Positions 4-12,836 of a stretch of 64,000 nt of DNA are shown here, one piece after another. The position numbers were made by a program, and so were the translations under genes. The number at the start of each line of letters is the position of its first letter. Position 1 is the first letter of the stretch. The notes below the pieces were generated by a model. That model made no database searches. It worked only from the letters and a program-made list of their open reading frames with translations, and was not told where the DNA came from. This DNA is from an uncultured Actinomycetota bacterium. Its GTDB lineage: Bacteria; Actinomycetota; Actinomycetes; Propionibacteriales; Nocardioidaceae. The stretch is from positions 13,458 through 77,457 of the forward strand of contig CAWBRA010000008.1 in NCBI GenBank assembly GCA_963791105.1, written 5' to 3'.

Positions 4-2610
4 GTGCACGGCGGCGTGAAGTTCTACCGCGGCGCAGCGAAGGCTGCCCGGGCCTACGTCGAGCGCGATCGGTCCCGGGCCGATGACTACTACCTCGGCG
101 AAGGCACCGGCGTCGCCGAGCGACTCACCGCGACCCCGGCTGGCGTAGCGGGAGCCGGTTCGATGGACGGTGAAACCTATGAGCAGTGGGTCGCCGGGGT
201 CGACGTCGACACCGGCCGGAAGAAGGGCCGGGTCCGCGACGACGCGAACGCGCTGCGGTTCGTCGAGGTCACCGTCAACGGACCCAAGACCTGGTCACTG
301 GCCGCCGCGCTGCATCCAGACATCTCGGCCGCGCTGGACGCAGCCCAGGACAGGGCCGCCGCCGAGATCGTCGGCTGGGTGGCCCAGCACGCGACGACCC
401 GGGTGGGACCGCGCGGTCGCCAGGTGCAGGTACCGGTCGAGAAGATCGAGGCAGCCGTGATCCGGCACTACACCTCCCGTGCCGGGGACCCTCACCGTCA
501 TCTTCACCTGCAGATCAACGCCCGCGTGTTCGCCGCCGGCGCGTGGCGGGGTCTGCACTCGGTCGGGGTGCGCGACATGATCGAGGCCATCAACGGCATC
601 GGCCACGCAGCGGTCGCCACCGACCCGGAGTTCCGGGCGGTCCTCGCCGCACGAGGCTTCAGCCTGGACGCCGAGACCGGGGAGATCGAGCAGCTCGCGC
701 CGTACGCCGGGGCGTTCAGCGCTCGGACCAGTCAGATCCACCGCAACATCGACCGGTACGAAGCCGAGTGGCGGCGCGAGCATCCCGGCGAGGACCCGGG
801 GCCGCGGCTGCGCGAGGCGTGGGATCGACGGGCGTGGGCCGATGCGCGGCCGGACAAGGTCGTCCCCACCGACGGCGCGGACCTGGTCGCACGGTGGAAC
901 GCCGAGCTGCGCGACTTGGGCTACCGCGACCCAGCCGCCCCAGCCGTGCTCGAAGCGACCCAGGTGGGCTGGATCGACCGCGACGGTGCGGCGGACTGGG
1001 TGATCTCCCAGCTCGGGGCGAAGCGGTCGGCGTGGAACGCCGCCGACATCCGCGGCAAGGTCGAGGTTCTGCTGGCACAGGCCAACCTGGTGGCGGAGCC
1101 CGCGGCGCGCATCGAGCTCGCCGAGGACGTGACCGCCCGCGCCGCCGCACGCTGCGTTCGGCTGCTCGCCTCACCCGACGTGCCCGAACATGTCCGCTCG
1201 CTGACCTCCCAGCACGCGTTGGCGGTGGAAGCGGATCTCGTCCACCGCCTCGCTCGCCGGGCCGAGAAGCCCGCCCGACGGGTCCGGCTGCAAGGGCGAG
1301 GGCTGACGCGGATCGACCCCACCCAGGCCGCCGTCGTCGGCGCCCTGGCCGGGGACGGCCAGCTGGTGGTCGTGGAGGGCGCGGCCGGCGCAGGCAAGAC
1401 CACTGCGTTGAGGTCGGCGCAAGCCGTGTTGGCTCGGCAGGGACATCGGCTGCTTGTGGTGACGCCGACGTTGAAGGCGGCCGAGGTCGCCGCCGCGGAG
1501 ACCGGCGCCGAAGGGCACTCGGCCGCCTGGCTGATCCACAAGCACGGCTGGCGCTGGGACGACGAAGGGCACTGGGCACGGCGCCCCGACGCCACCCCCG
1601 ACCCGGCCGCCCGGCTGCGACCAGGAGACCTGCTGCTGGTCGATGAGGCGGGCATGCTGGACCAGGACACCGCCCGCGCGCTCCTGACGGTCGCCGACGA
1701 GGCCGGGGCGCGGGTCGCGCTGGTCGGTGACCGGCACCAGCTGCCAGCGGTCGGACGCGGTGGCGTCCTGGACCACGCCCTCGCGTGGGCCCACCCGACC
1801 GCGGTCGTGGCCCTGGAGAAGGTGCACCGGTTCACCGATCCCGGTTACGCCGCGCTCTCCCTGCGCATGCGCACCGGCGACGACCCTGCCGCCGTCTTCG
1901 ACGCGTTGCATCGTCGCAGGTCGATCGTCGTCCACCCCAGCGACAGCGAGCGCACCGCTGCCCTCGCCGAGGCGGGAGCGGCCGGCGACCTTGTCGTCGC
2001 TGACACCCGCGAGCACGTGGCCAGTCTCAACGCCGCGATCCGCGACCAGCGTCGCGCCGACCCCACCACAGGCGACCCGGCCGATTCGATGGTGACCGCT
2101 CGCGGCGAACGGATCGGGCTCGGGGACCGCGTCGCCACTCGCCGCAACGACGCCGACCTCGGGGTCGCCAACCGCCAGACCTGGACAGTCACCGGTATCG
2201 ACGAGGACGGCAACCTGCTTCTTCACGGCCACGGGCGCGATCGCGAGATCCCGGCGGAGTACGCCACCCGGTTCGTCGAGCTCGCCTACGCCACCACGGT
2301 CCACGGAGCCCAGGGCGAGACCGTCGACCATGCCTACGTCGCGATCGGCGACACGACCGGCGCCGCTGCGGCGTACGTCTCAATGACCCGCGGCCGCGAA
2401 CACAACACCGCCCACCTGGTGGCCGAGAGCGTCGAGGACGCCCGCAAACAGTGGATCGCGGTCTTCGGCCGCGACCGCGCCGACCTCGGCCCGGCACACG
2501 CCCGACGCCAAGCCATCGACGCGATCGATGCGTACGGCCCACGACACCGCGGACCGTTGCCGGAGCATCGACGGGCCATCACCGCCAGCGGCGTTGCACT
2601 TGGTCTGTGA
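4..2610 (+). CDS. MobF/TrwC-type conjugative relaxase fused to a RecD-like helicase
   Basis: N-terminus carries DDYYLGEG (Tyr pair) and the His cluster DPHRHLHLQIN. Mid-region has the P-loop GAAGAGKTTAL. C-terminus has the UvrD_C-like TTVHGAQGETVDHAYV. GTG start at position 4, so the true start could lie upstream of the window. Confidence 0.85.
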   Translation: MHGGVKFYRGAAKAARAYVERDRSRADDYYLGEGTGVAERLTATPAGVAGAGSMDGETYEQWVAGVDVDTGRKKGRVRDDANALRFVEVTVNGPKTWSLAAALHPDISAALDAAQDRAAAEIVGWVAQHATTRVGPRGRQVQVPVEKIEAAVIRHYTSRAGDPHRHLHLQINARVFAAGAWRGLHSVGVRDMIEAINGIGHAAVATDPEFRAVLAARGFSLDAETGEIEQLAPYAGAFSARTSQIHRNIDRYEAEWRREHPGEDPGPRLREAWDRRAWADARPDKVVPTDGADLVARWNAELRDLGYRDPAAPAVLEATQVGWIDRDGAADWVISQLGAKRSAWNAADIRGKVEVLLAQANLVAEPAARIELAEDVTARAAARCVRLLASPDVPEHVRSLTSQHALAVEADLVHRLARRAEKPARRVRLQGRGLTRIDPTQAAVVGALAGDGQLVVVEGAAGAGKTTALRSAQAVLARQGHRLLVVTPTLKAAEVAAAETGAEGHSAAWLIHKHGWRWDDEGHWARRPDATPDPAARLRPGDLLLVDEAGMLDQDTARALLTVADEAGARVALVGDRHQLPAVGRGGVLDHALAWAHPTAVVALEKVHRFTDPGYAALSLRMRTGDDPAAVFDALHRRRSIVVHPSDSERTAALAEAGAAGDLVVADTREHVASLNAAIRDQRRADPTTGDPADSMVTARGERIGLGDRVATRRNDADLGVANRQTWTVTGIDEDGNLLLHGHGRDREIPAEYATRFVELAYATTVHGAQGETVDHAYVAIGDTTGAAAAYVSMTRGREHNTAHLVAESVEDARKQWIAVFGRDRADLGPAHARRQAIDAIDAYGPRHRGPLPEHRRAITASGVALGL

Positions 2611-3265
2611 GCGGGGCCGGGCCTTCGTGGGCACCGGCCAGCCTCATGCCCATCTCCGCGGCCAATCTCGCAGAGTAGCCGCCCGGATCCAGCGGTCGGC
2701 TGCGCTTCGAGCCGGCGCCCATGGCCGCGTCGATCAGCGGTTGCCATGCAGCCCGGATGACCTCGGGAAGCTCCATGCTCGGCCAGGCTTCCACCAACAG
2801 CGCCCCATCCACGGCGTTGAGCAAGACCTCTTCGACGCCGTGGCGAAGCGCCAGCTCGTAGAACTCGATGCGGTCGTCGAGCACGGAGAGATCCCATACG
2901 TCGTAGCCCACGATCGCGCGGAAGTAGAACACCGTCACGCGTGCGTAGCACGTCGGGATCGGCACCTGCCAGAGCCGATCCGGCACCAGGTACCCGCCCG
3001 CGTCTGGGTCCTCCAGGTAGTCGAAAGCGACCAGCGGCTTGACTGCGAGTTCATGGTCAGCCGCAGCGACAAGCCGCTCGACCACCTCTAGGGTCGGGGA
3101 CTTGCGGCGCGCCTCGTACTCCGAGACCGAGGACTGCTGGGTCCTTGCCCACTCCGCCAGCTGGCGCTGGGAGAGACCCGCTGCCTTGCGGGCAATTTCG
3201 ATCACCGTCTTCGACTCCACCACCCGCATATTATCGCTGATCATCGATAGGCAGGGGCTGTCCAC
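2579..3265 (-). CDS. XRE-family helix-turn-helix protein with an uncharacterised C-terminal domain
   Basis: N-terminal LSQRQLAEWARTQQSSVSEYEARRKSPTLEVVERL is a classic HTH_3 pattern. Alternative ATG starts at 3244 and 3229. The 3' end overlaps the relaxase 3' end by 32 bp (convergent). Confidence 0.7.
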   Translation of the reverse strand: MDSPCLSMISDNMRVVESKTVIEIARKAAGLSQRQLAEWARTQQSSVSEYEARRKSPTLEVVERLVAAADHELAVKPLVAFDYLEDPDAGGYLVPDRLWQVPIPTCYARVTVFYFRAIVGYDVWDLSVLDDRIEFYELALRHGVEEVLLNAVDGALLVEAWPSMELPEVIRAAWQPLIDAAMGAGSKRSRPLDPGGYSARLAAEMGMRLAGAHEGPAPLTDQVQRRWR

Positions 3266-3322: not shown

Positions 3323-3566
3323 ATGACCGCATCACCGATCGACCCCGCCGACGACCGCCGCCCGGCCAGGAACCCCGGCGACGAGATGCTCAGCCTCCAG
3401 GAAGCCTGCGCGCTTCCTCCGCGTCCCCGAGGGCACCCTGCGCTACTGGCGCCACCTCGGCAGTGGGCCCCGCAGCTTCAAGGTCGGCCGCCACGTCCGC
3501 TACTGGCGAGCCGACCTCATCCTCTGGCTCACCGAGCAGACCAACCGTCCCCAGAACCACCGCTGA
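3323..3566 (+). pseudogene. xis: Excisionase-family (MerR-like HTH_17) gene, frameshifted
   Basis: AGGAG RBS then ATG 3323 gives MTASPIDPADDRRPARNPGDEMLSLQEACA in one frame. The conserved FLRVPEGTLRYWRHLGSGPRSFKVGRHVRYWRADLILWLTEQTNRPQNHR-stop continues in another frame (stop 3564-3566), and that frame has no start codon of its own. A one-base indel near 3405-3413 explains it. Confidence 0.7.
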
Positions 3567-3624: not shown

Positions 3625-4723
3625 ATGGCGGGAAACATCGCCAAGCGAGCCAACGGAAAATGGCGGGCGCGGTATCGCGACGACGCCGGTAACGAACGCG
3701 CTAGGCACTTCGACCGCAAGATCGATGCGCAGCAGTGGCTGGACCAGGTCACCTCGGCCGTGGTGACCGGCACGTACGCCGATCCCAAGGCCGGCCGGAT
3801 CACCTTCGCGGCGTACTTCGGCGAGTGGTCGGCCCGCCAGGTCTGGGCACCCGGCACCGTGCTCGCGATGTCGCTGGCGGCGAGATCCGTGCCGTTCGCG
3901 GGGAAGCCGATGAAGCAGGTCCGGCGATCGGACGTCGAGACCTGGATCAAGCAGATGAACGCCGCCGGGCTTGCCCCCGGCACGATCAAGACGCGGTACG
4001 TCAACGTCAGGTCGGTGTTCCGCGCCGCCGTGAAGGACAGGGTGATCGGCTCCGACCCGACCGACGGCGTACGCCTCCCCCGCGGCCGTCGCGCGGACGT
4101 GGCCATGTCGATCCCCGCTCCGGAGGAGGTGGGGCAGCTCATGGCCGTGGCCGACGAGCGGTTCCAGCCGTTCATCGCCCTCTGCGCTTTCGCCGGCCTG
4201 CGGCTCGGCGAGGCCGCCGGGGTCCAGCTCGGCGACGTGGACTTCCTCCGCAGGTCGCTGAAGGTGTCCCGCCAGGTCCAGCGCGTCAACGGCGGGGAGA
4301 TCGACGTGCGAGCGCCGAAGTACGGCTCCGAGCGCGTCGTCTACCTCGCCGACAGCCTCGTCAACGTGCTCGCCGACCACGTCACGCGCCCACGGCACGA
4401 CCGGCAAGGATCGGTGGCTCTTCGCCGGGGAGGGCGACGACCCACCGCACCAGAACACCGTCGGCTACTGGTGGCGCAAGACGCTGCGCGACGCCGGCCT
4501 CTCCGGCATCAAGCTCCACGACCTGCGGCACTTCTACGCCTCCGGGCTCATCGCCGCCGGGTGCGACGTCGTGACCGTCCAGCGCTCGCTCGGTCACGCG
4601 AAGGCGACCACAACCCTCAACACCTACGCCCATCTCTGGCCGACTGCCGAGGACCGGACGAGGAAGGCGGCGGAGTCGATCATGGCCGCGTCGCTCGGAC
4701 CTCGCGGAGTAGGCGCGCGTTGA
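3625..4723 (+). pseudogene. int: Tyrosine recombinase/integrase, frameshifted
   Basis: GGAAGGAG RBS plus ATG 3625. The N-terminal SAM-like and core-binding part (MAGNIAKRANGKWRARYRDDAGNERARHF...) is in one frame up to about 4388. The catalytic C-terminus (GKDRWLFAGEGDDPPHQNTVGYWW...IKLHDLRHFYASGLIAAG...LGHAKATTTLNTYAHLW, stop 4721-4723) is in the +1 frame. The junction is at cgcgcccacgg, about 4386-4392. Confidence 0.8.
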
Positions 4724-4740
4724 GGGGACCTGTCCCCTCC
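4723..4740. terminator. GC hairpin between convergent int and cargo cassette
   Basis: GAGGGGAC-ct-GTCCCCTC inverted repeat overlapping the int stop codon. No U-tract. Confidence 0.4.
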
Positions 4741-4801
4741 CCACCAAGTGTGAGCATCTGCACGACCCCTCACGCTCAGTGCGGCATCCGCTGTGCGCGG
4801 C

Positions 4802-5458
4802 TCACGTGGCCGCCGGGCTTTCGGGAAGCCTCATCCGACCCGAGAGCGGGTCGTCAACGCGCCAACGTCGATAGGTCGCAGGCAGGTCGCCCTGGGGCGG
4901 CAGGTGCGCCATGAGCGCTTCGGCGTTGGGAATCGTCGCAAGGACGGCCGCGAGCAGGTCCACCGCCTCGGTCAGGTGCATCGCCAGGTCGGCGGCAAGC
5001 ACGCTGGGGTGGGACGCGCCCGTGTGGTTGGGCAGGAGCCAGCGCGCCGACGGGTTGGGGTGCCCACCCCACGCGCAGTGCTGCTTGTACTCACTGGGCG
5101 TGAAGCCGCTCGCCTGCCTCATCTGGCTCGGGCGAAACGACTTCTCGATTCGGTTGGTCGAAGCTCCGAGCCACCGCTGGCGCTGCGCCGCGTCGTCGCG
5201 GAACACAGCCATCAGGTAGTGCGCTTCAACGACCTGGCGAGTCAGCGCGGTGGCCGCGTACCAGCGCTCGCGGTCGAAAGCATCCGCGGCTTCTTGGCCG
5301 AGCTGCCCAACCATCTGCGTGACGAGGGCAACCGCCTCGGTGTCGCGGTCCTTCGTTGCCCAGGCGCTCACCCAGAGGCTGTCCCCCGCACCTGCCAGCC
5401 AGTCGGAAGCCAGGTGGCAGACGGCCGAGCGAGCCGCTCGAAGGTCACTCTCGCTCAC
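4802..5458 (-). CDS. Hypothetical protein, 218 aa (cassette gene 2)
   Basis: GTG start overlaps the stop of the upstream gene (GTGA at 5455-5458). The protein is non-repetitive and soluble-looking, with the segment HCAWGGHPNP. I recognise no family. Confidence 0.6.
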   Translation of the reverse strand: MSESDLRAARSAVCHLASDWLAGAGDSLWVSAWATKDRDTEAVALVTQMVGQLGQEAADAFDRERWYAATALTRQVVEAHYLMAVFRDDAAQRQRWLGASTNRIEKSFRPSQMRQASGFTPSEYKQHCAWGGHPNPSARWLLPNHTGASHPSVLAADLAMHLTEAVDLLAAVLATIPNAEALMAHLPPQGDLPATYRRWRVDDPLSGRMRLPESPAAT

Positions 5459-5949
5459 GCCCCGGCACCCTCAAAGCGCTCGAAGAACCAGCCTGCCTGA
5501 TCGGGCACGATCACAGCCAGCTCCTCCGACACATCCAGGTCGTACTGAGCGGCCAGGTCACCCACCTGGACGCCCACAAGACCACGCAGCCTTCCCAGGG
5601 CCATCGAAAGTGGGTCAGTACCCATCGGCCTCCAGTTGCGGTCCCAGTCACCGCCGGCCGGGCCGACCTCACCCATGAAGTCACGAAATAGGCGCTGGAG
5701 CAGTTGGACCCGGCGAGCCAGTTCGGTGCCGATCTCAGGATTGTCCAAGTGGACGGCAAGCTGCTTGCGGACGTGGTCGGCCGACATCACGCAGTGCTCC
5801 TCGATTTCCATCGAGAAGTCCTTCCACAACATCCGCCGATCCGCCAGAAGGTTCAGAACCCGGCGAGCTATTTCACGGTCGTCGTCCTTGCGTTCCCACT
5901 GCGCGCCGCCGAAGGGACTGGAACCTCCTGTAAGCCGGTATCTCGCCAC
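5455..5949 (-). CDS. Hypothetical protein, 164 aa (cassette gene 1)
   Basis: GTG start at 5949, with no strong SD upstream. Well-behaved composition (REIARRVLNLLADRRMLWKDFSMEIEEHCVMSADHVRKQL...). I recognise no family with confidence. Confidence 0.6.
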   Translation of the reverse strand: MARYRLTGGSSPFGGAQWERKDDDREIARRVLNLLADRRMLWKDFSMEIEEHCVMSADHVRKQLAVHLDNPEIGTELARRVQLLQRLFRDFMGEVGPAGGDWDRNWRPMGTDPLSMALGRLRGLVGVQVGDLAAQYDLDVSEELAVIVPDQAGWFFERFEGAGA

Positions 5950-6238
5950 CGCACCATCGTCGCAGAATCTGCGTGCCAGCGAGGAGCGACCTCAGCCTGA
6001 CGAAGTCACTGTTCGCAGTTATCCAACGTGCGTGGCAGCCTTCCGTGCGCCTTGGCGGTTCACGCCTCCAGCTGCCCTGAGGAAGCACCCGATTCGGACC
6101 TACGAAGCTGCTGTGACTCACCCTCGAGGACCGAACTGCGCACAGACCTCGACCCCCCAAGGAGCCGTTCCGACGACCAAGACGCTGGGTCATCGAGGCA
6201 TGCGGTACTGAATTTCTTGCGGACTCTGTGCGGACTGG

Positions 6239-6257
6239 GAGGGGTCTACACCCCCTC
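6239..6257 (-). terminator. Hairpin downstream of ychF
   Basis: GAGGGG-N7-CCCCTC about 22 nt after the ychF stop on the minus strand. No U-tract. Confidence 0.35.
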
Positions 6258-6279
6258 TGACCTGCGCAAACGCGCCGGT

Positions 6280-7356
6280 TCACACGTTGAAGCGGAACTC
6301 CACCACGTCGCCGTCGGCCATCACGTAGTCCTTGCCCTCAATACGGACCTTGCCGGCCGACTTGGCCGTGGCCATCGAGCCAGCGGCGACGAGGTCGTCG
6401 AAGGAGACGATCTCGGCCTTGATGAAGCCCTTCTGGAAGTCGGTGTGAATGACACCGGCGGCCTCGGGGGCGGTGGCGCCCTTCTTGATCGTCCAGGCGC
6501 GAGCCTCCTTGGGCCCCGCGGTCAGGTAGGTCTGCAGGCCGAGGGTGTCGAAGCCGACGCGGGCGAGCATGTCCAGCCCGGGCTCCTCCACGCCCATCTC
6601 GGCGAGCATCTCGCGGGCCTCCGCCTCGTCGTCGAGCTCGACCAGCTCGGACTCGAACTTGGCGTCCAGGAAGATCGCCTCGGCCGGCGCCACGATCTCG
6701 CGCATCTGCTTCTTCAGGGCCTCGTCGGCGAGCTCCTCGGCGTCGCAGTTGAACACGTAGATGTAGGGCTTGGAGGTCAGCAGCGAGAGCTCGCGGACCA
6801 GGTCCCGGTCGATCTTGGTGGAGATGATCGGGGTGCCGGCCTCCAGGGCCTCCTTGGCCTCACGCGCGGCGTCGAGGTTCGCGGTGATCGCCTTGTTGCC
6901 GCGTGCCTCCTTCTCCAGCCGCGGGATCGCCTTGTCCACCGTCTGCAGGTCGGCCAGGATCATCTCGGTCTGGATCGTCGAGATGTCGGACTCGGGGTTC
7001 ACCTCGCCGTCGACGTGGGTGACGTCCTCGTCGCGGAACACCCGGGTCACCTGGCAGATCGCCGAGGACTCGCGGATGTGCGAGAGGAACTTGTTGCCCA
7101 GACCCTCCCCCTGGGAGGCGCCGGCGACGATGCCGGCGATGTCGACGAACTCGACCGAGGCCGGGAGGATCTTGGCCGAGCCGAAGATCTCGGCCAGCTT
7201 GCCGAGCCGCGCGTCCGGCACGCCCACCACGCCCACATTGGGCTCGATGGTGGCGAACGGGTAGTTCGCCGCCAGCACGTTGTTCTTGGTCAGCGCGTTG
7301 AAGAGCGTCGACTTGCCCGCATTGGGGAGACCGACGATTCCGATGGTGAGTGCCAC
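6280..7356 (-). CDS. ychF: Redox-regulated ribosome-binding ATPase YchF
   Basis: LTIGIVGLPNAGKSTLFNALT P-loop and a TGS-type C-terminus ...KDYVMADGDVVEFRFNV. GTG at 7356 is preferred over the ORF-track start at 7392. Confidence 0.9.
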   Translation of the reverse strand: MALTIGIVGLPNAGKSTLFNALTKNNVLAANYPFATIEPNVGVVGVPDARLGKLAEIFGSAKILPASVEFVDIAGIVAGASQGEGLGNKFLSHIRESSAICQVTRVFRDEDVTHVDGEVNPESDISTIQTEMILADLQTVDKAIPRLEKEARGNKAITANLDAAREAKEALEAGTPIISTKIDRDLVRELSLLTSKPYIYVFNCDAEELADEALKKQMREIVAPAEAIFLDAKFESELVELDDEAEAREMLAEMGVEEPGLDMLARVGFDTLGLQTYLTAGPKEARAWTIKKGATAPEAAGVIHTDFQKGFIKAEIVSFDDLVAAGSMATAKSAGKVRIEGKDYVMADGDVVEFRFNV

Positions 7357-7545
7357 GGGCGGCGAGTCTACGGGCGGTGAGCCCACAGCCACGAATCCAA
7401 GAAGTCACTGAGCGCTGTGTACGTTCGAGTGTGACGCCCACCACAGTGGGTAGTGAACCGAGAACGATCCCCGACCACGCATCTCGCGTTGCTCGAACAG
7501 CCCGCTCGAGCCCGGCATGACCAAACACGACGCCTGGAGGCACCC

Positions 7546-9044
<1,499 letters not shown>

Positions 9045-9048
<4 letters not shown>

Positions 9049-10796
9049 GCCCAGCCAGCACCGCGACCACCACCAAGGGGCAGGCCGACACCCGGGTCGA
9101 GGAGGCCGAGGCGAGCGCGGAGCTCGCCAGCAACGAGCTCTCGGCACCACTCGACCTCCTGCTCGCCGACGCCTCCAGCAGCCCGCTGCGCAGGTTCCTG
9201 CCGGGCATGTCCGGCGTCCGGTTCGGCGCGGCCCTGGTCCGGCGACCCGGACGGGTCGCGGGACGCACGCTCGGGCTCGCCTCGGAGCTGGCGAAGGTGG
9301 GCATCGGCCGCTCCGAGCTGGGGCCGCACGAGAAGGACAGGCGGTTCACCGACGAGGCGTGGGCCAAGAACCCGCTGTTCAAGCGGACGTTGCAGTCCTA
9401 CCTCGCCGTCGGGGAGTCCCTGCGCGGGCTCCTCCAGGACGCCGACCTCGACTGGGGCGACAACCAGCGCATGGGCTTCATCGTGGACAACCTCGTCGAG
9501 GCGGCTGCACCGAGCAACAACCCGGCCCTGAACCCCAGGGTCCTCAAGCGGATGCTGGACACCGGTGGGGGCAACCTGCTCGCGGGCGGGCGACGCTTCA
9601 TCCGGGACTTCGCCACCGCTCCGAGGGTGCCGTCGATGGTCGAGCCGGACGCCTTCGAGGTGGGCACGGATCTCGCGGTCACCCCCGGCGAGGTGGTGCT
9701 GCGCACCGACGTCTTCGAGCTGATCCAGTACACCCCACAGACGACCAAGGTCCGCTCGGTGCCGCTGCTCATCGTTCCGCCGACGATCAACAAGTACTAC
9801 GTGATCGACCTCGCCGAGCAGCGCAGCCTCGTCGAGCACCTCGTCGCGAACGGCCAGCAGGTGTTCTGCATCTCCTGGCGCAACCCGGACGCCCGGCACG
9901 CCGACTGGGGCCTGGACACCTACGGCCAGGCCATCCTCGACGCAATGACCGCCACCGAGAAGATCTCCCGCCAGGACAAGGTGGCGATGCTCGGCATCTG
10001 CTCCGGCGGCATGATCGCCTCCATGGTGCTCGCGCACCTCGCGGCGATCGGCGAGCTCGACCGGGTGGCGGCGTACAGCCTGGCGGTGACCGTGCTCGAC
10101 CAGAACCAGGCGGGCCTGCCCAACGCGCTGCTCTCGCACAAGGCAGCGGCCGCCTCGACGCGAGCGTCCGCCGAGAAGGGGTACCTCGACGGCCGCGTGC
10201 TCGCCGAGGTGTTCGCGTGGCTGCGCCCGAACGACCTGATCTGGAACTACTGGGTCAACAACTACCTGCTCGGCTATCCCCCCAAGGCGTTCGACATCCT
10301 CTACTGGAACGCCGACCCGGTGCGGATGTCGGCGGCGATGCACCGCGACTTCATGGATCTCGCGATCCGCAACGCGCTCGTGGAGCCCGGCGAGTCGAGG
10401 ATGCTCGGTTCCGAGGTCGACCTCGGCAAGATCGACGTGGACACCTACGTGGTGGCCGGGATCGCGGACCACCTGTGCAAGTGGGAGTCCTGCTACGCCA
10501 CCACGCAGCTGTTCGGCGGCGAGTGCAAGTTCGTGCTGTCCACCAGCGGGCACATCGCCGCGATGGTGAACCCCCCGGGCAACCCCAAGGCCAGCTTCCA
10601 GACGGCCCCCGAGAACCCCGCCGAGGCGCACGAGTGGCTCGCGGGTGCCTCCAAGGTCAGGGGCAGCTGGTGGGAGGACTACGTCACCTGGCTGGCGGAG
10701 CGCACCGGGCCGGAGCGCAACAAGCCCCGCCGGCTCGGTTCCGCGGCGTACGAGCCGGTCTGTGAGGCCCCGGGCACGTATGTCCATGACCGCTGA
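9045..10796 (+). CDS. phaC: Poly(R)-hydroxyalkanoate synthase, class I/II-like PhaC
   Basis: [17 protein letters not shown], the lipase-box-like GICSGG with catalytic Cys, WRNPD, and about 583 aa. The GTG start overlaps the fadD stop (GTGA). Confidence 0.85.
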
Positions 10797-11640
10797 GGGC
10801 GGCCCGGGCACGAGGTCCGGTCGTGACCGGATCCGCACGGTGTCGGTGCGCGGCATCCAGGCGAGGGTGTCGGTCCGGCCTGCTCGGGGACGGCTCGTTG
10901 ACGAGCCGCCGCTGCTGCTGTGCAACGGCATCGGCGCCAGCCTGGAGGCGCTGGCCCCGCTGGTCGAGTCGCTCGACCCCGACCGCGGCGTGGTGCGCTT
11001 CGACGTACCCGGCGTCGGCGGGAGCCAGCCCCCGCCGTTCCCCTACCCGATCGCGGCGCTGTCGTCGTGGGTGACGGCCCTGATGGCCAAGCTGGGTCAC
11101 CGACGGTTCGACGTGCTGGGGTTGTCGTGGGGTGGCGGTCTGGCCCAGCAGCTCGCGGTCCAGTCCCGCGGCCGGGTACGCCGGTTGGTGCTGGTGGCCA
11201 CCGGCACCGGGTCGCTGATGGTGCCGGCGCACCCGAGGGTGCTGGCCAAGATGCTCACCCCGCGACGGCACCGGGACCCGGCGTACGCCGCCCGGATCGC
11301 GCCCGAGATCTATGGCGGGACCATGCGGACCAACCCCGAGGCCGGCGCCGCGCTGCTGCACGCCTTCACCCGTGCCGGGCCGAAGCGCGGCTACTACTAC
11401 CAGCTGGCCGCGATGAGCGGCTGGAGCAGCCTGCCGTTCCTGGGGCTGATCCGGCAACCCACCCTGGTGATGGGCGGCGACGACGACCCGATCATCCCGG
11501 TCGCGAACCCCCGGCTGCAGGCCCGACTGATCCCCCGCTCGACCCTGCACGTCTACCAGGGCGGGCACCTGGCCATCCTGACCGAGGCCGCCGAGCTGGT
11601 GCCGGTCATCGAAGCCTTTCTGAGCGAGGAGAACACATGA
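10780..11640 (+). CDS. phaZ: Alpha/beta hydrolase resembling intracellular PHA depolymerase PhaZ
   Basis: LLLCNGIGASLE, lipase box GLSWGG, about 286 aa, sitting directly after phaC as in mcl-PHA clusters. The start overlaps the phaC end. Confidence 0.7.
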   Translation: MSMTAEGGPGTRSGRDRIRTVSVRGIQARVSVRPARGRLVDEPPLLLCNGIGASLEALAPLVESLDPDRGVVRFDVPGVGGSQPPPFPYPIAALSSWVTALMAKLGHRRFDVLGLSWGGGLAQQLAVQSRGRVRRLVLVATGTGSLMVPAHPRVLAKMLTPRRHRDPAYAARIAPEIYGGTMRTNPEAGAALLHAFTRAGPKRGYYYQLAAMSGWSSLPFLGLIRQPTLVMGGDDDPIIPVANPRLQARLIPRSTLHVYQGGHLAILTEAAELVPVIEAFLSEENT

Positions 11641-12836
11641 GCGACCTGGCGGACCTCGGGCTCGAGGACTCCCCCTTCTCCGACTTCCTCGGCTTCGAGC
11701 TGCTGCTCGAGGAGCAGGACCGCGAGCTGCTCAGCAGCGTGCGCGCCTACCTGACGCGCGAGGTGGAGCCGGTCATCAACGAGTTCTGGACCCGCGCTGA
11801 GTTCCCCCACGAGCTGGTGCCCGGCATCGCCGCGCTCGGCATCGCCGGACTCGCCTTCGAGGCTCCGGGCTGTCCTGGCCGGGGCGCGCTGGTCGACGGG
11901 CTGGTCGCGATGGAGCTCGCCCGCGTCGACCCTTCGATCGCTACCTTCATGGGCGTGCACGGCGGGCTCGCCATGGGGTCGATCCAGCTCGGCGGCTCCG
12001 ACGAGCAGCGGAAGCGGTGGCTGCCGGCGATGGCCCGGATGGAGCTGATCGGGGCGTTCGGTCTGACCGAGCCGGAGCACGGCTCGGACATCTCGGCCGG
12101 GCTGGCGACGACCGCCCGTCGTGACGGTGACGACTGGATCCTCAACGGTGAGAAGAAGTGGATCGGCAACGCCGCCTTCGCCGACCTGGTGGTCATCTGG
12201 GCGCGCGCCGAGGACGACGGTGAGGTCAAGGGGTTCGTCGTGGAGAAGGGCACCGAGGGGATGACCTTCGACAAGCAGGAGGACAAGATCGCCCTGCGCG
12301 TCGTACAGAACGCCGAGATCCACCTCCGCGACGTCCGGGTCCCGGAAGCCAACCGGCTGCAGAACGCGGACACCTTCCGGGCGACCGCGGACGTGCTGCG
12401 GGTGACCCGGATGAACGTCGCCTGGATGGCCACGGGGTGTGCCCGGGGCGCCTTCGAGCACGCGCTGCGCTACACCAAGGCGCGCCAGCAGTTCGGTCGC
12501 CCGATCGCGTCCTTCCAGCTGGTGCAGGACCTGCTGGTCAAGATGCTCAGCAACGTCACCGCGTCGACGGCGATGAACGTGCGCGCCTCGCAGCTCCAGG
12601 ACGCGGGGCTGCTCAAGGACGAGCACGCGTCGCTCTGCAAGGCGCACTCCACGGTCCGGATGCGGGAGGGCGTCGGCTGGGCACGCGAGGTGCTCGGGGG
12701 CAACGGGGTCCTGCTCGAGCACCACGTCGGCCGGTTCGTCGCGGACGCCGAGGCGATCTACTCCTACGAGGGCACTCGCGAGATGAACACGCTGATCGTC
12801 GGTCGGGCGATCACCGGGGAGAGCGCGTTCGTCTGA
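11637..12836 (+). CDS. Acyl-CoA dehydrogenase (glutaryl-CoA dehydrogenase-like)
   Basis: GLTEPEHGSDISAG, KWIGNAAFADL, QFGRPIASFQLVQ and YEGTREMNTLIVGRAITG. ATGA overlap with phaZ. Confidence 0.85.
   Translation: MSDLADLGLEDSPFSDFLGFELLLEEQDRELLSSVRAYLTREVEPVINEFWTRAEFPHELVPGIAALGIAGLAFEAPGCPGRGALVDGLVAMELARVDPSIATFMGVHGGLAMGSIQLGGSDEQRKRWLPAMARMELIGAFGLTEPEHGSDISAGLATTARRDGDDWILNGEKKWIGNAAFADLVVIWARAEDDGEVKGFVVEKGTEGMTFDKQEDKIALRVVQNAEIHLRDVRVPEANRLQNADTFRATADVLRVTRMNVAWMATGCARGAFEHALRYTKARQQFGRPIASFQLVQDLLVKMLSNVTASTAMNVRASQLQDAGLLKDEHASLCKAHSTVRMREGVGWAREVLGGNGVLLEHHVGRFVADAEAIYSYEGTREMNTLIVGRAITGESAFV

Follow-up and report, generated by a model that had tools for sequence, protein, structure and literature searches.

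The 64,000-nucleotide stretch of DNA considered here ('the window' in what follows), from contig CAWBRA010000008.1 of an uncultured Actinomycetota bacterium, carries near its left end two small overlapping genes, here termed A and B, that would be co-translated as a two-gene cargo operon of a small integrative, mobilisable element. Protein A belongs to DUF6650, a family recognised as an immune effector only in 2025-2026, and protein B belongs to a family that appears to be undescribed. The pair and the non-coding DNA around it comprise the following features:

5455-5949, minus strand: gene A (ORF A), 164 amino acids, GTG start; a soluble DUF6650 (ThsG-like) protein with an isoelectric point of 5.1
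4802-5458, minus strand: gene B (ORF B), 218 amino acids, GTG start; an all-helical protein of an apparently undescribed family
5455-5458, minus strand: GTGA stop/start overlap (TGA ending A, GTG opening B), by which the two genes are translationally coupled
5950-6279, minus strand: upstream intergenic region of 330 bp; element DNA with 63.0% GC, the presumed promoter region of A-B
4722-4739, no strand: 7-bp GC-rich stem-loop between the convergent integrase and B genes, from RNA folding; a possible bidirectional terminator

Both open reading frames (ORFs), their strand and their overlap had been proposed in an earlier note on this DNA, and all are confirmed by the ORF list and the sequence, as is the position of the pair between an integrase gene (3625-4723, plus strand) and ychF (6280-7392, minus strand). 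The start codons of both genes match the N-termini of their homologues, which follow the pattern M-x-R-Y-R-L-T-G in the case of A and M-x-x-x-[DE]-L-R in that of B. The description of both products as soluble proteins without a transmembrane segment also holds: the highest Kyte-Doolittle mean over 19 residues is 0.92 for A and 1.64 for B, neither protein having a strong hydrophobic segment, and the model of B is a globular bundle of helices. The impression that the pair and the gap upstream of it are lower in GC than their surroundings was correct in part. Compared with 70.5% for the whole window, GC is 63.2% in A and 63.0% in the 330-bp gap, and the claim does not extend to the total GC of B (69.4%). 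At third codon positions (GC3), A (74%) and B (83%) both fall well under host genes, represented by ychF (GC 67.2%, GC3 95%) and an acyl-CoA synthetase gene (GC 68.0%, GC3 94%).

The region 4600-6400 was checked for a sigma-70 consensus, an Rfam match, a terminator and a conserved upstream motif, and none of these was found, only small hairpins. The stem-loop at 4722-4739 sits in a 91-nucleotide stretch whose z-score, taken as a whole, is only -1.55, and a U-tract is absent.

The families of A and B

Protein A matches the Pfam family DUF6650 (PF20355) with 31.3 bits, above the gathering score of 27 (E 2.4e-7), its residues 3-94 being aligned to profile positions 2-93 of 150. The earlier note had held that neither product could be placed in a family and had called the function of the cassette unrecognisable; the first statement stands for B and fails for A, and the second likewise fails for A as a DUF6650 member. 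All listed homologues of A carry a precomputed PF20355 match, a profile built from the A clade retrieves canonical DUF6650 proteins at E ~1e-28, and a full-length alignment of A with canonical members contains 20 invariant columns, among them R5, R29, R38, R39, R61, R122, W18 and D24. Protein A also matches phrog_29952 nearly end to end (E 5e-12). From these comparisons A is placed as a divergent actinobacterial branch of DUF6650. Its AlphaFold2 monomer model (predicted local distance difference test, pLDDT, 78) is mostly helical and has no match among PDB folds, which agrees with the view in the literature of DUF6650 as unlike any known domain. No match to A was found in PADLOC-DB 2.0.0 or NCBIfam, including the NCBIfam SMEK model, and the protein has no N-terminal extension, the DUF6650 match beginning at residue 3.

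Protein B, by comparison, is recognised by nothing in Pfam, NCBIfam, PADLOC-DB 2.0.0 or PHROG. Its AlphaFold2 model (pLDDT 88; predicted template modelling score 0.87) consists of 11 helices and zero strands; Foldseek searches with this model returned nothing at E<0.001 in the PDB or in BFVD (viral models), and profile searches of PDB sequences gave chance-level matches only. When 61 diverse members of the B family were scanned against Pfam, no family emerged, only two chance-level singletons. The family itself is large: an exhaustive HMMER search recovered 523 clusters (50% identity), of which 108 lie below 1e-30, with named sources that include Nocardioides, Arthrobacter, Mycobacteroides, Conexibacter, Steroidobacteraceae, Pirellulales and Burkholderia. 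Judged from these sequence searches, it is an undescribed family that spans several phyla and has neither a Pfam entry nor a structural relative.

Two specific identities for B were considered and rejected. A TIR domain or other known fold is ruled out by the all-helical model and by the lack of a Foldseek match in the PDB or BFVD; the TIR fold is alpha/beta, which cannot be reconciled with 11 helices and a complete lack of strands. A HEPN ribonuclease, for which the spacing R74-x5-H80 might speak, is rejected for want of conservation at H80, a position taken by H, N, Q, Y or E in the homologues; it is R74, E78 and Y81 that are invariant. None of the 61 members has a HEPN match in Pfam, nor was there a fold match. 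The B family was also aligned to the DUF5677 protein that neighbours an A-clade gene in Austwickia, giving an hhalign probability of 0.2% and hence no support for a relationship, in what is a weak test, the template being a single sequence.

The same 61 members, at ~22-44% identity, allowed the conserved positions of B to be mapped. Y67, R74, E78, Y81, W96, Y124, H127, H133, P134, H161 and W199 are invariant across the alignment, and R10, Q75, R114, C128, G131, G132 and D157 are nearly so. In the AlphaFold2 model, each of three groups of residues (67/74/78/81, 124/127/128 and 157/161) occupies a single face of a predicted helix. An enzyme-like helical protein is thereby predicted, three helices of which each present a face of conserved Arg, Glu, Tyr, His or Cys residues, and the arrangement suggests a buried catalytic, metal-binding or ligand-binding pocket.

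Linkage of the two genes and their neighbourhoods

The context of both genes was read in a small sample of ~38 loci, searched with profiles of both families; the sample is biased to long contigs and is not a census. A DUF6650 gene lies directly upstream of B in the window, in L009 (a locus from a metagenome-assembled uncultured Actinomycetota genome, found by scanning species-representative genomes and distinct from the source of the window), in Arthrobacter (L005) and Micropruina (L011), and in the metagenome contigs L019 and L025, the junction sequence of L019 being identical to that of L011. In a Nocardioides lineage (L001-4, L010 and L033, including the conjugative plasmid pNOCA01) the place directly upstream of B is likewise taken by a DUF6650 gene, here termed A'. 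In that lineage B is ~80% identical to the B of the window, and A' is only ~34% identical to A, being a canonical DUF6650 protein (E 1.4e-12 over the full model). The eight pair loci that were read comprise five distinct pairs and cover both DUF6650 lineages, and in every one of them the start of B overlaps the stop of the DUF6650 gene by 4 or 8 nucleotides. With many conserved homologues for each protein as well, the arrangement is more than a chance overlap of reading frames.

In a neighbour-joining tree of B, the members linked to A form a paraphyletic grade that reaches down to a B only 60% identical to that of the window. Nested within this grade are the A' clade and a further clade that lacks A. 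The simplest history consistent with this tree is that the pairing arose once in this actinobacterial branch and persisted while B diverged to 60% identity, A being later displaced by its homologue A' in one lineage and lost in others. That A should have been replaced, in the same position, by a member of its own family argues for a functional link between A and B. Homologues of both proteins are 65-85% identical across distant actinobacterial genera, and this, together with a GC3 far below that of the host, fits horizontal spread. A phage origin of the pair was considered and set aside, since IMG/VR contigs and GenBank phages contained no close relative of A or of B.

Co-occurrence is recurrent without being obligate, for each gene is also found alone: B without a DUF6650 neighbour in L006-8, L012, L020, L021, L023, L030-32, L034 and L036-38, and A without B in L013-18. 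Such loci bring into view the explanation that A and B are two independent single-gene cargo functions sharing a transcript, joined by the tight packing of cargo at recombinase-proximal hotspots in one actinobacterial lineage. Independent cargo would be expected to yield solitary B genes, such as those in mycobacterial loci, in transposon cargo, in integrase islands, on a Burkholderia plasmid and in Conexibacter and Pirellulales, and A genes that stand alone or with a NucC-like nuclease. It would not be expected to yield the overlap of start and stop codons in every pair examined, nor a pairing that has outlasted the divergence of B to 60% identity; and the arrival of a distant DUF6650 lineage in exactly the position of A is something that chance packing explains poorly. 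This explanation is therefore regarded as unlikely, if still worth bearing in mind; were the genes to prove unrelated cargo, all that would follow is an updated annotation (A as DUF6650) and one more unknown family.

The facultative association bears equally on the suggestion that the pair stabilises the element as a toxin-antitoxin or addiction module, in which a toxic product is neutralised by the other. Type II toxin-antitoxin systems resemble the pair in being compact, with overlapping stop and start codons, and in residing on mobile DNA; the pair is translationally coupled with the smaller, acidic protein encoded first, and the mobile elements concerned carry other toxin-antitoxin pairs. 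They differ from it in the features by which such systems are defined, namely obligate co-occurrence and the combination of a DNA-binding antitoxin with a known toxin fold. Both genes are commonly alone, neither product shows the DNA-binding domain of an antitoxin or the fold of a known toxin, and both exceed the typical size of type II components. The toxin-antitoxin option offered in the earlier note is accordingly a weak one, and it is very unlikely to be correct.

The neighbourhoods of the relatives, judged from their gene content, are consistently mobile and defence-like. Besides pNOCA01, the pair is carried elsewhere by an integrative conjugative element or plasmid that encodes a TrwC relaxase-primase, and in an island of Arthrobacter its neighbour is an ATPase that weakly matches restriction enzymes and Shedu-type proteins; relaxase or coupling-protein genes lie next to many B and A' loci. 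Homologues of B are found near an MmeI-like restriction-modification gene (one locus), alone in an integrase island, and, by eye from ORF translations and without a family scan, beside a RES/Xre-like toxin-antitoxin pair and downstream of a serine recombinase gene or of TniB/TniQ-like genes; others reside in a Burkholderia plasmid and in Conexibacter and Pirellulales genomes. In Mycobacteroides chelonae and a related contig (L006-L008 and L037, ~8500-11900), B homologues 68-74% identical to that of the window lie downstream of dapB within a run of small unknown genes, the gene directly upstream of B being flavodoxin/FMN-reductase-like (weak Pfam match to FMN_red) and not DUF6650. A serine recombinase gene and a Prim-Pol gene are found nearby in these mycobacterial loci.

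One A-clade neighbourhood deserves separate description. In an Austwickia metagenome-assembled genome (L013, 7103-9876; also L014 and L015), the cargo of a Tn7-like element with TnsA-like, TniB and TniQ genes contains a gene for a DUF6602 protein, then, after 23 bp, a DUF6650 gene whose product is 75% identical to A, and then a DUF5677 gene. The DUF6602 protein gives PADLOC matches of the PD-(D/E)xK/NucC effector nuclease type at E 7.7e-30 and 1e-18. This arrangement resembles that in the window in that a close relative of A travels as mobile cargo directly after another gene, here one of defence type, and differs from it in that B is absent and the neighbour is a PD-(D/E)xK nuclease with NucC-type matches; itself uncharacterised, it may be another DUF6650-containing module.

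The mobile element and its insertion in ychF

The remaining genes of the element, and the host gene at its boundary, are as follows:

4-2610, plus strand: TrwC-type (MOBF) relaxase-helicase gene; Pfam TrwC E 3e-54 and AAA_30 E 2e-45; 5' end beyond the window
2579-3265, minus strand: XRE-family helix-turn-helix (HTH) regulator; Pfam HTH_31 E 2e-9
3323-3566, plus strand: excisionase-like gene, by eye from its likeness to excisionase-type HTH proteins, no family scan; frameshift near 3412
3625-4723, plus strand: tyrosine integrase; weak Pfam Phage_integrase match in the N-terminal part; a 1-nucleotide insertion at 4386 breaks the frame
6280-6339, minus strand: last 20 codons of ychF, apparently supplied by the element, from identity to L009; element/chromosome junction at ~6339/6340
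6280-7392, minus strand: ychF; Pfam YchF-GTPase_C E 4.6e-39

The extent of the element is revealed by comparison with L009. In an alignment with the reverse complement of that locus, positions 4686-6339 of the window are identical bar one 1-nucleotide indel at 6247, and the part from the relaxase gene to the integrase gene is ~98-99.5% identical; from 6340 onward the identity falls to ~88-90%. The step at 6339/6340 lies 60 nucleotides inside the 3' end of ychF, the stop codon of which is at 6280, and the chance of 60 identical bases at a flanking identity of ~89% is, by our own arithmetic, ~0.001. It follows from this step that the element takes with it A, B and the 330-bp gap, together with the final 20 codons of ychF, so that the earlier view of the pair as integrase-proximal cargo of a mobile element is upheld. 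The element appears to have inserted in the 3' end of ychF and to have restored the gene, which is the pattern expected for such integration. The two hosts, ~10% apart, carry near-identical copies of the element at the same site.

An integrative mobilisable element is indicated by an integrase (with its weak Phage_integrase match), a TrwC relaxase, an excisionase recognised by eye and a sharp boundary with the host, and the GC3 of its genes (74-87%) is set apart from that of host genes (94-95%). The start of the relaxase gene lies upstream of the window, as L009 makes clear. Neither the window nor the 5 kb leftward from L009 contains a copy of the 6200-6420 region that might represent a direct att repeat, the far end of the element falling outside these data.

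The two copies differ in which of their mobility genes are intact. Relative to L009, where the integrase frame is ~365 amino acids long and the excisionase-like product 80, the window has a 1-nucleotide insertion in each of the two genes (at 4386 and 3412), and the L009 relaxase gene is frameshifted (at ~14220 of L009) compared with the intact copy in the window. All three indels lie outside homopolymer runs and may reflect either genuine decay or errors of assembly. Both loci have intact, identical copies of A and B.

The position of the pair next to the integrase gene and the att junction raises the question of whether it might be an accessory factor for the recombination, transfer or regulation of the element, such as a directionality or DNA-processing cofactor. 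The frequent presence of B by relaxase genes, and a Paraburkholderia plasmid in which a DUF6650 gene extends over the start of a tyrosine recombinase gene (described below), would suit such a role. The pair is, on the other hand, convergent to the integrase gene, in an element that already has its own excisionase and regulator, and neither A nor B has a DNA-binding domain. The same genes moreover accompany differing mobility machineries (a serine recombinase, a Tn7-like transposon, plasmids), a pattern that fits cargo rather than core functions, and an accessory role has only a slight chance of being right.

Several smaller observations attach to the boundary and its surroundings. Directly after the ychF stop, at 6229-6275 on the minus strand, are two stem-loops (z-score -2.8), the second being GAGGGG/CCCCUC, and the single indel relative to L009 (6247) falls in the loop of this second one; the stem-loops are probably the ychF terminator, supplied on element DNA. 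Past ychF, at 7453-12836, the host genes include look-alikes of an acyl-CoA synthetase, an alpha/beta hydrolase and an acyl-CoA dehydrogenase, with a polyhydroxyalkanoate-synthase-like protein at 8964-10796, all recognised by eye and without a family scan. High-GC overlapping shadow ORFs are abundant across the window.

A candidate defence operon without a TIR gene

Operons that join TIR and DUF6650 genes were named type VI Thoeris (ThsB plus ThsG) in a preprint of December 2025, according to which the TIR protein makes the cyclic ADP-ribose 2'cADPR upon infection and ThsG senses it (bioRxiv 10.64898/2025.12.03.692087). ThsG, with or without membrane helices, causes growth arrest; its predicted assembly is a tube of six protomers that has basic pockets between them, and its domain is unlike any known. 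DUF6650 was the effector in all five type VI Thoeris systems scored 'Yes' for defence, including soluble forms; production of 2'cADPR upon infection was demonstrated for three of the TIR partners, and the compound arrested growth in both systems so tested (bioRxiv 10.64898/2025.12.03.692087). A literature search on the name ThsG otherwise returned only an unrelated plant compound. A separate line of work, DefensePredictor (Science 2026; PMC13092281), described the single-gene system DS-27/28 'SMEK' (WP_087896215.1), in which SMEK is fused to DUF6650 and which protects E. coli from phage.

The pair in the window resembles type VI Thoeris in being a two-gene operon, one product of which is a small DUF6650 protein (soluble effectors being among those tested), and A retains the invariant Arg, Trp and Asp positions of the family. 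It differs in that the partner is not a TIR protein, B being all-helical and without a Pfam TIR match, and in that the element has no TIR gene; A, furthermore, is from a divergent actinobacterial branch whose Pfam match covers only part of the profile. The DUF6650 effector of type VI Thoeris is thus present and the adjacent TIR protein is not. Because this defining partner was tested for and is absent, the pair is not type VI Thoeris, and it may still work like it. With DS-27/28 the pair shares the joining of DUF6650 to a non-TIR partner, and that validated protein indicates that DUF6650 can work outside TIR systems. There, however, SMEK is the N-terminal part of one 299-amino-acid protein, whereas here the partner is a separate protein of 218 amino acids from an apparently undescribed family, and the 164-amino-acid A has no SMEK fused to its N-terminus; nor, then, is the pair that system. 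What seems, from these comparisons, to be new is the joining of a DUF6650 module to a partner whose family is undescribed; DUF6650 in type VI Thoeris and in the SMEK fusion was already known.

The reading preferred here, tentatively and as a possibility that falls short of an even prospect, is that A-B is a TIR-less, DUF6650-based anti-phage or anti-invader cargo operon in which B stands in the place of the TIR protein. By analogy with type VI Thoeris, A would oligomerise and bind a small nucleotide-derived signal or other trigger, and, once triggered, would stop the growth of the infected cell. B would act as an upstream sensor or as a component that makes or processes the signal, the direction from B to A being our own supposition. 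This reading draws on the family membership of A and the experimental record of that family, on the conserved coupling of the two genes, on the displacement of A by A' and on the mobile and defence-like neighbourhoods; it is further supported by the preservation of A and B, intact and identical to those of L009, in an element copy whose integrase and excisionase genes are frameshifted. The earlier note had named a defence-type role as plausible, and it is made more so by the DUF6650 effector family and the SMEK-DUF6650 defence protein, and by relatives that lie near a NucC-like nuclease and near restriction-modification, toxin-antitoxin and recombinase or transposase genes. As a candidate variant anti-phage system, A-B is credible.

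Several observations weigh against such a role. The association is facultative, about half of the sampled close B lineages having no DUF6650 neighbour; the distant B homologues examined are all solitary, and A-clade genes are also found without B. The Pfam match of A is modest and confined to the N-terminal two thirds of the DUF6650 model. PADLOC-DB 2.0.0, a search of the kind proposed in the earlier note, matches neither protein, and the genes of the element (relaxase, HTH regulator, excisionase, integrase, A and B) include no TIR or other known signal-making enzyme. According to the preprint, the mechanism of toxicity of soluble DUF6650 effectors is unknown (bioRxiv 10.64898/2025.12.03.692087). 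Finally, on plasmid pOLGA3 of Paraburkholderia phytofirmans (L035, 4950-6421) a DUF6650 gene and a tyrosine recombinase gene share 4 nucleotides at the start of the latter, which hints at other roles for the domain. The pOLGA3 context differs from every defence arrangement described for DUF6650.

Unless the two genes prove to be unrelated cargo, a natural and recurrent pairing of DUF6650 with a non-TIR partner would offer a second, independent handle on what this domain responds to and does. B is, moreover, a partner that has been swapped between two DUF6650 lineages, in a pair that moves among actinobacterial genera on plasmids and integrative elements, and its signature of conserved residues looks like an active site, making it a reasonable target in the search for new biochemical activity in defence or counter-defence. 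A bolder proposal, and something of a long shot, is that B is the founding member of a new enzyme class, all-helical and without kinship to TIR, CD-NTase or Cas10, that senses infection or makes a signal, and that B activates a ThsG-like DUF6650 effector and so provides TIR-independent, 'Thoeris-like' immunity. Were this true, the solitary B homologues across phyla would feed other effectors or act alone.

The same genes could also be imagined on the opposite side of the conflict, A serving as a soluble, oligomeric sponge for the recipient cell's immune signals of the cyclic ADP-ribose type and B destroying or modifying those signals, so as to aid establishment of the element after transfer. 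The phage proteins Tad1 and Tad2 soak up such signals and provide the analogy. In keeping with this idea, A has no membrane or enzymatic effector domain and matches a phage family (phrog_29952), and the unexplained toxicity of soluble DUF6650 proteins leaves room for it. The proximity of many B and A' genes to those for relaxases and coupling proteins would also suit it, as would a distant B homologue on a 3-Mb contig (L030, 4756-6756), which lies by ardA (anti-restriction) and ssb and beside genes for a TrwC relaxase and a coupling protein, in what looks like the leading region of a conjugative element. Against counter-defence, that homologue is transcribed divergently from ardA and ssb, and IMG/VR contigs and GenBank phages hold no close relative of either protein. 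The soluble DUF6650 proteins of Bacillus, moreover, were effectors and not sponges in the type VI Thoeris systems tested (bioRxiv 10.64898/2025.12.03.692087), and a counter-defence role for the pair is judged distinctly unlikely. Further along the L030 contig lie an MNT/HepT pair and an integrase gene.

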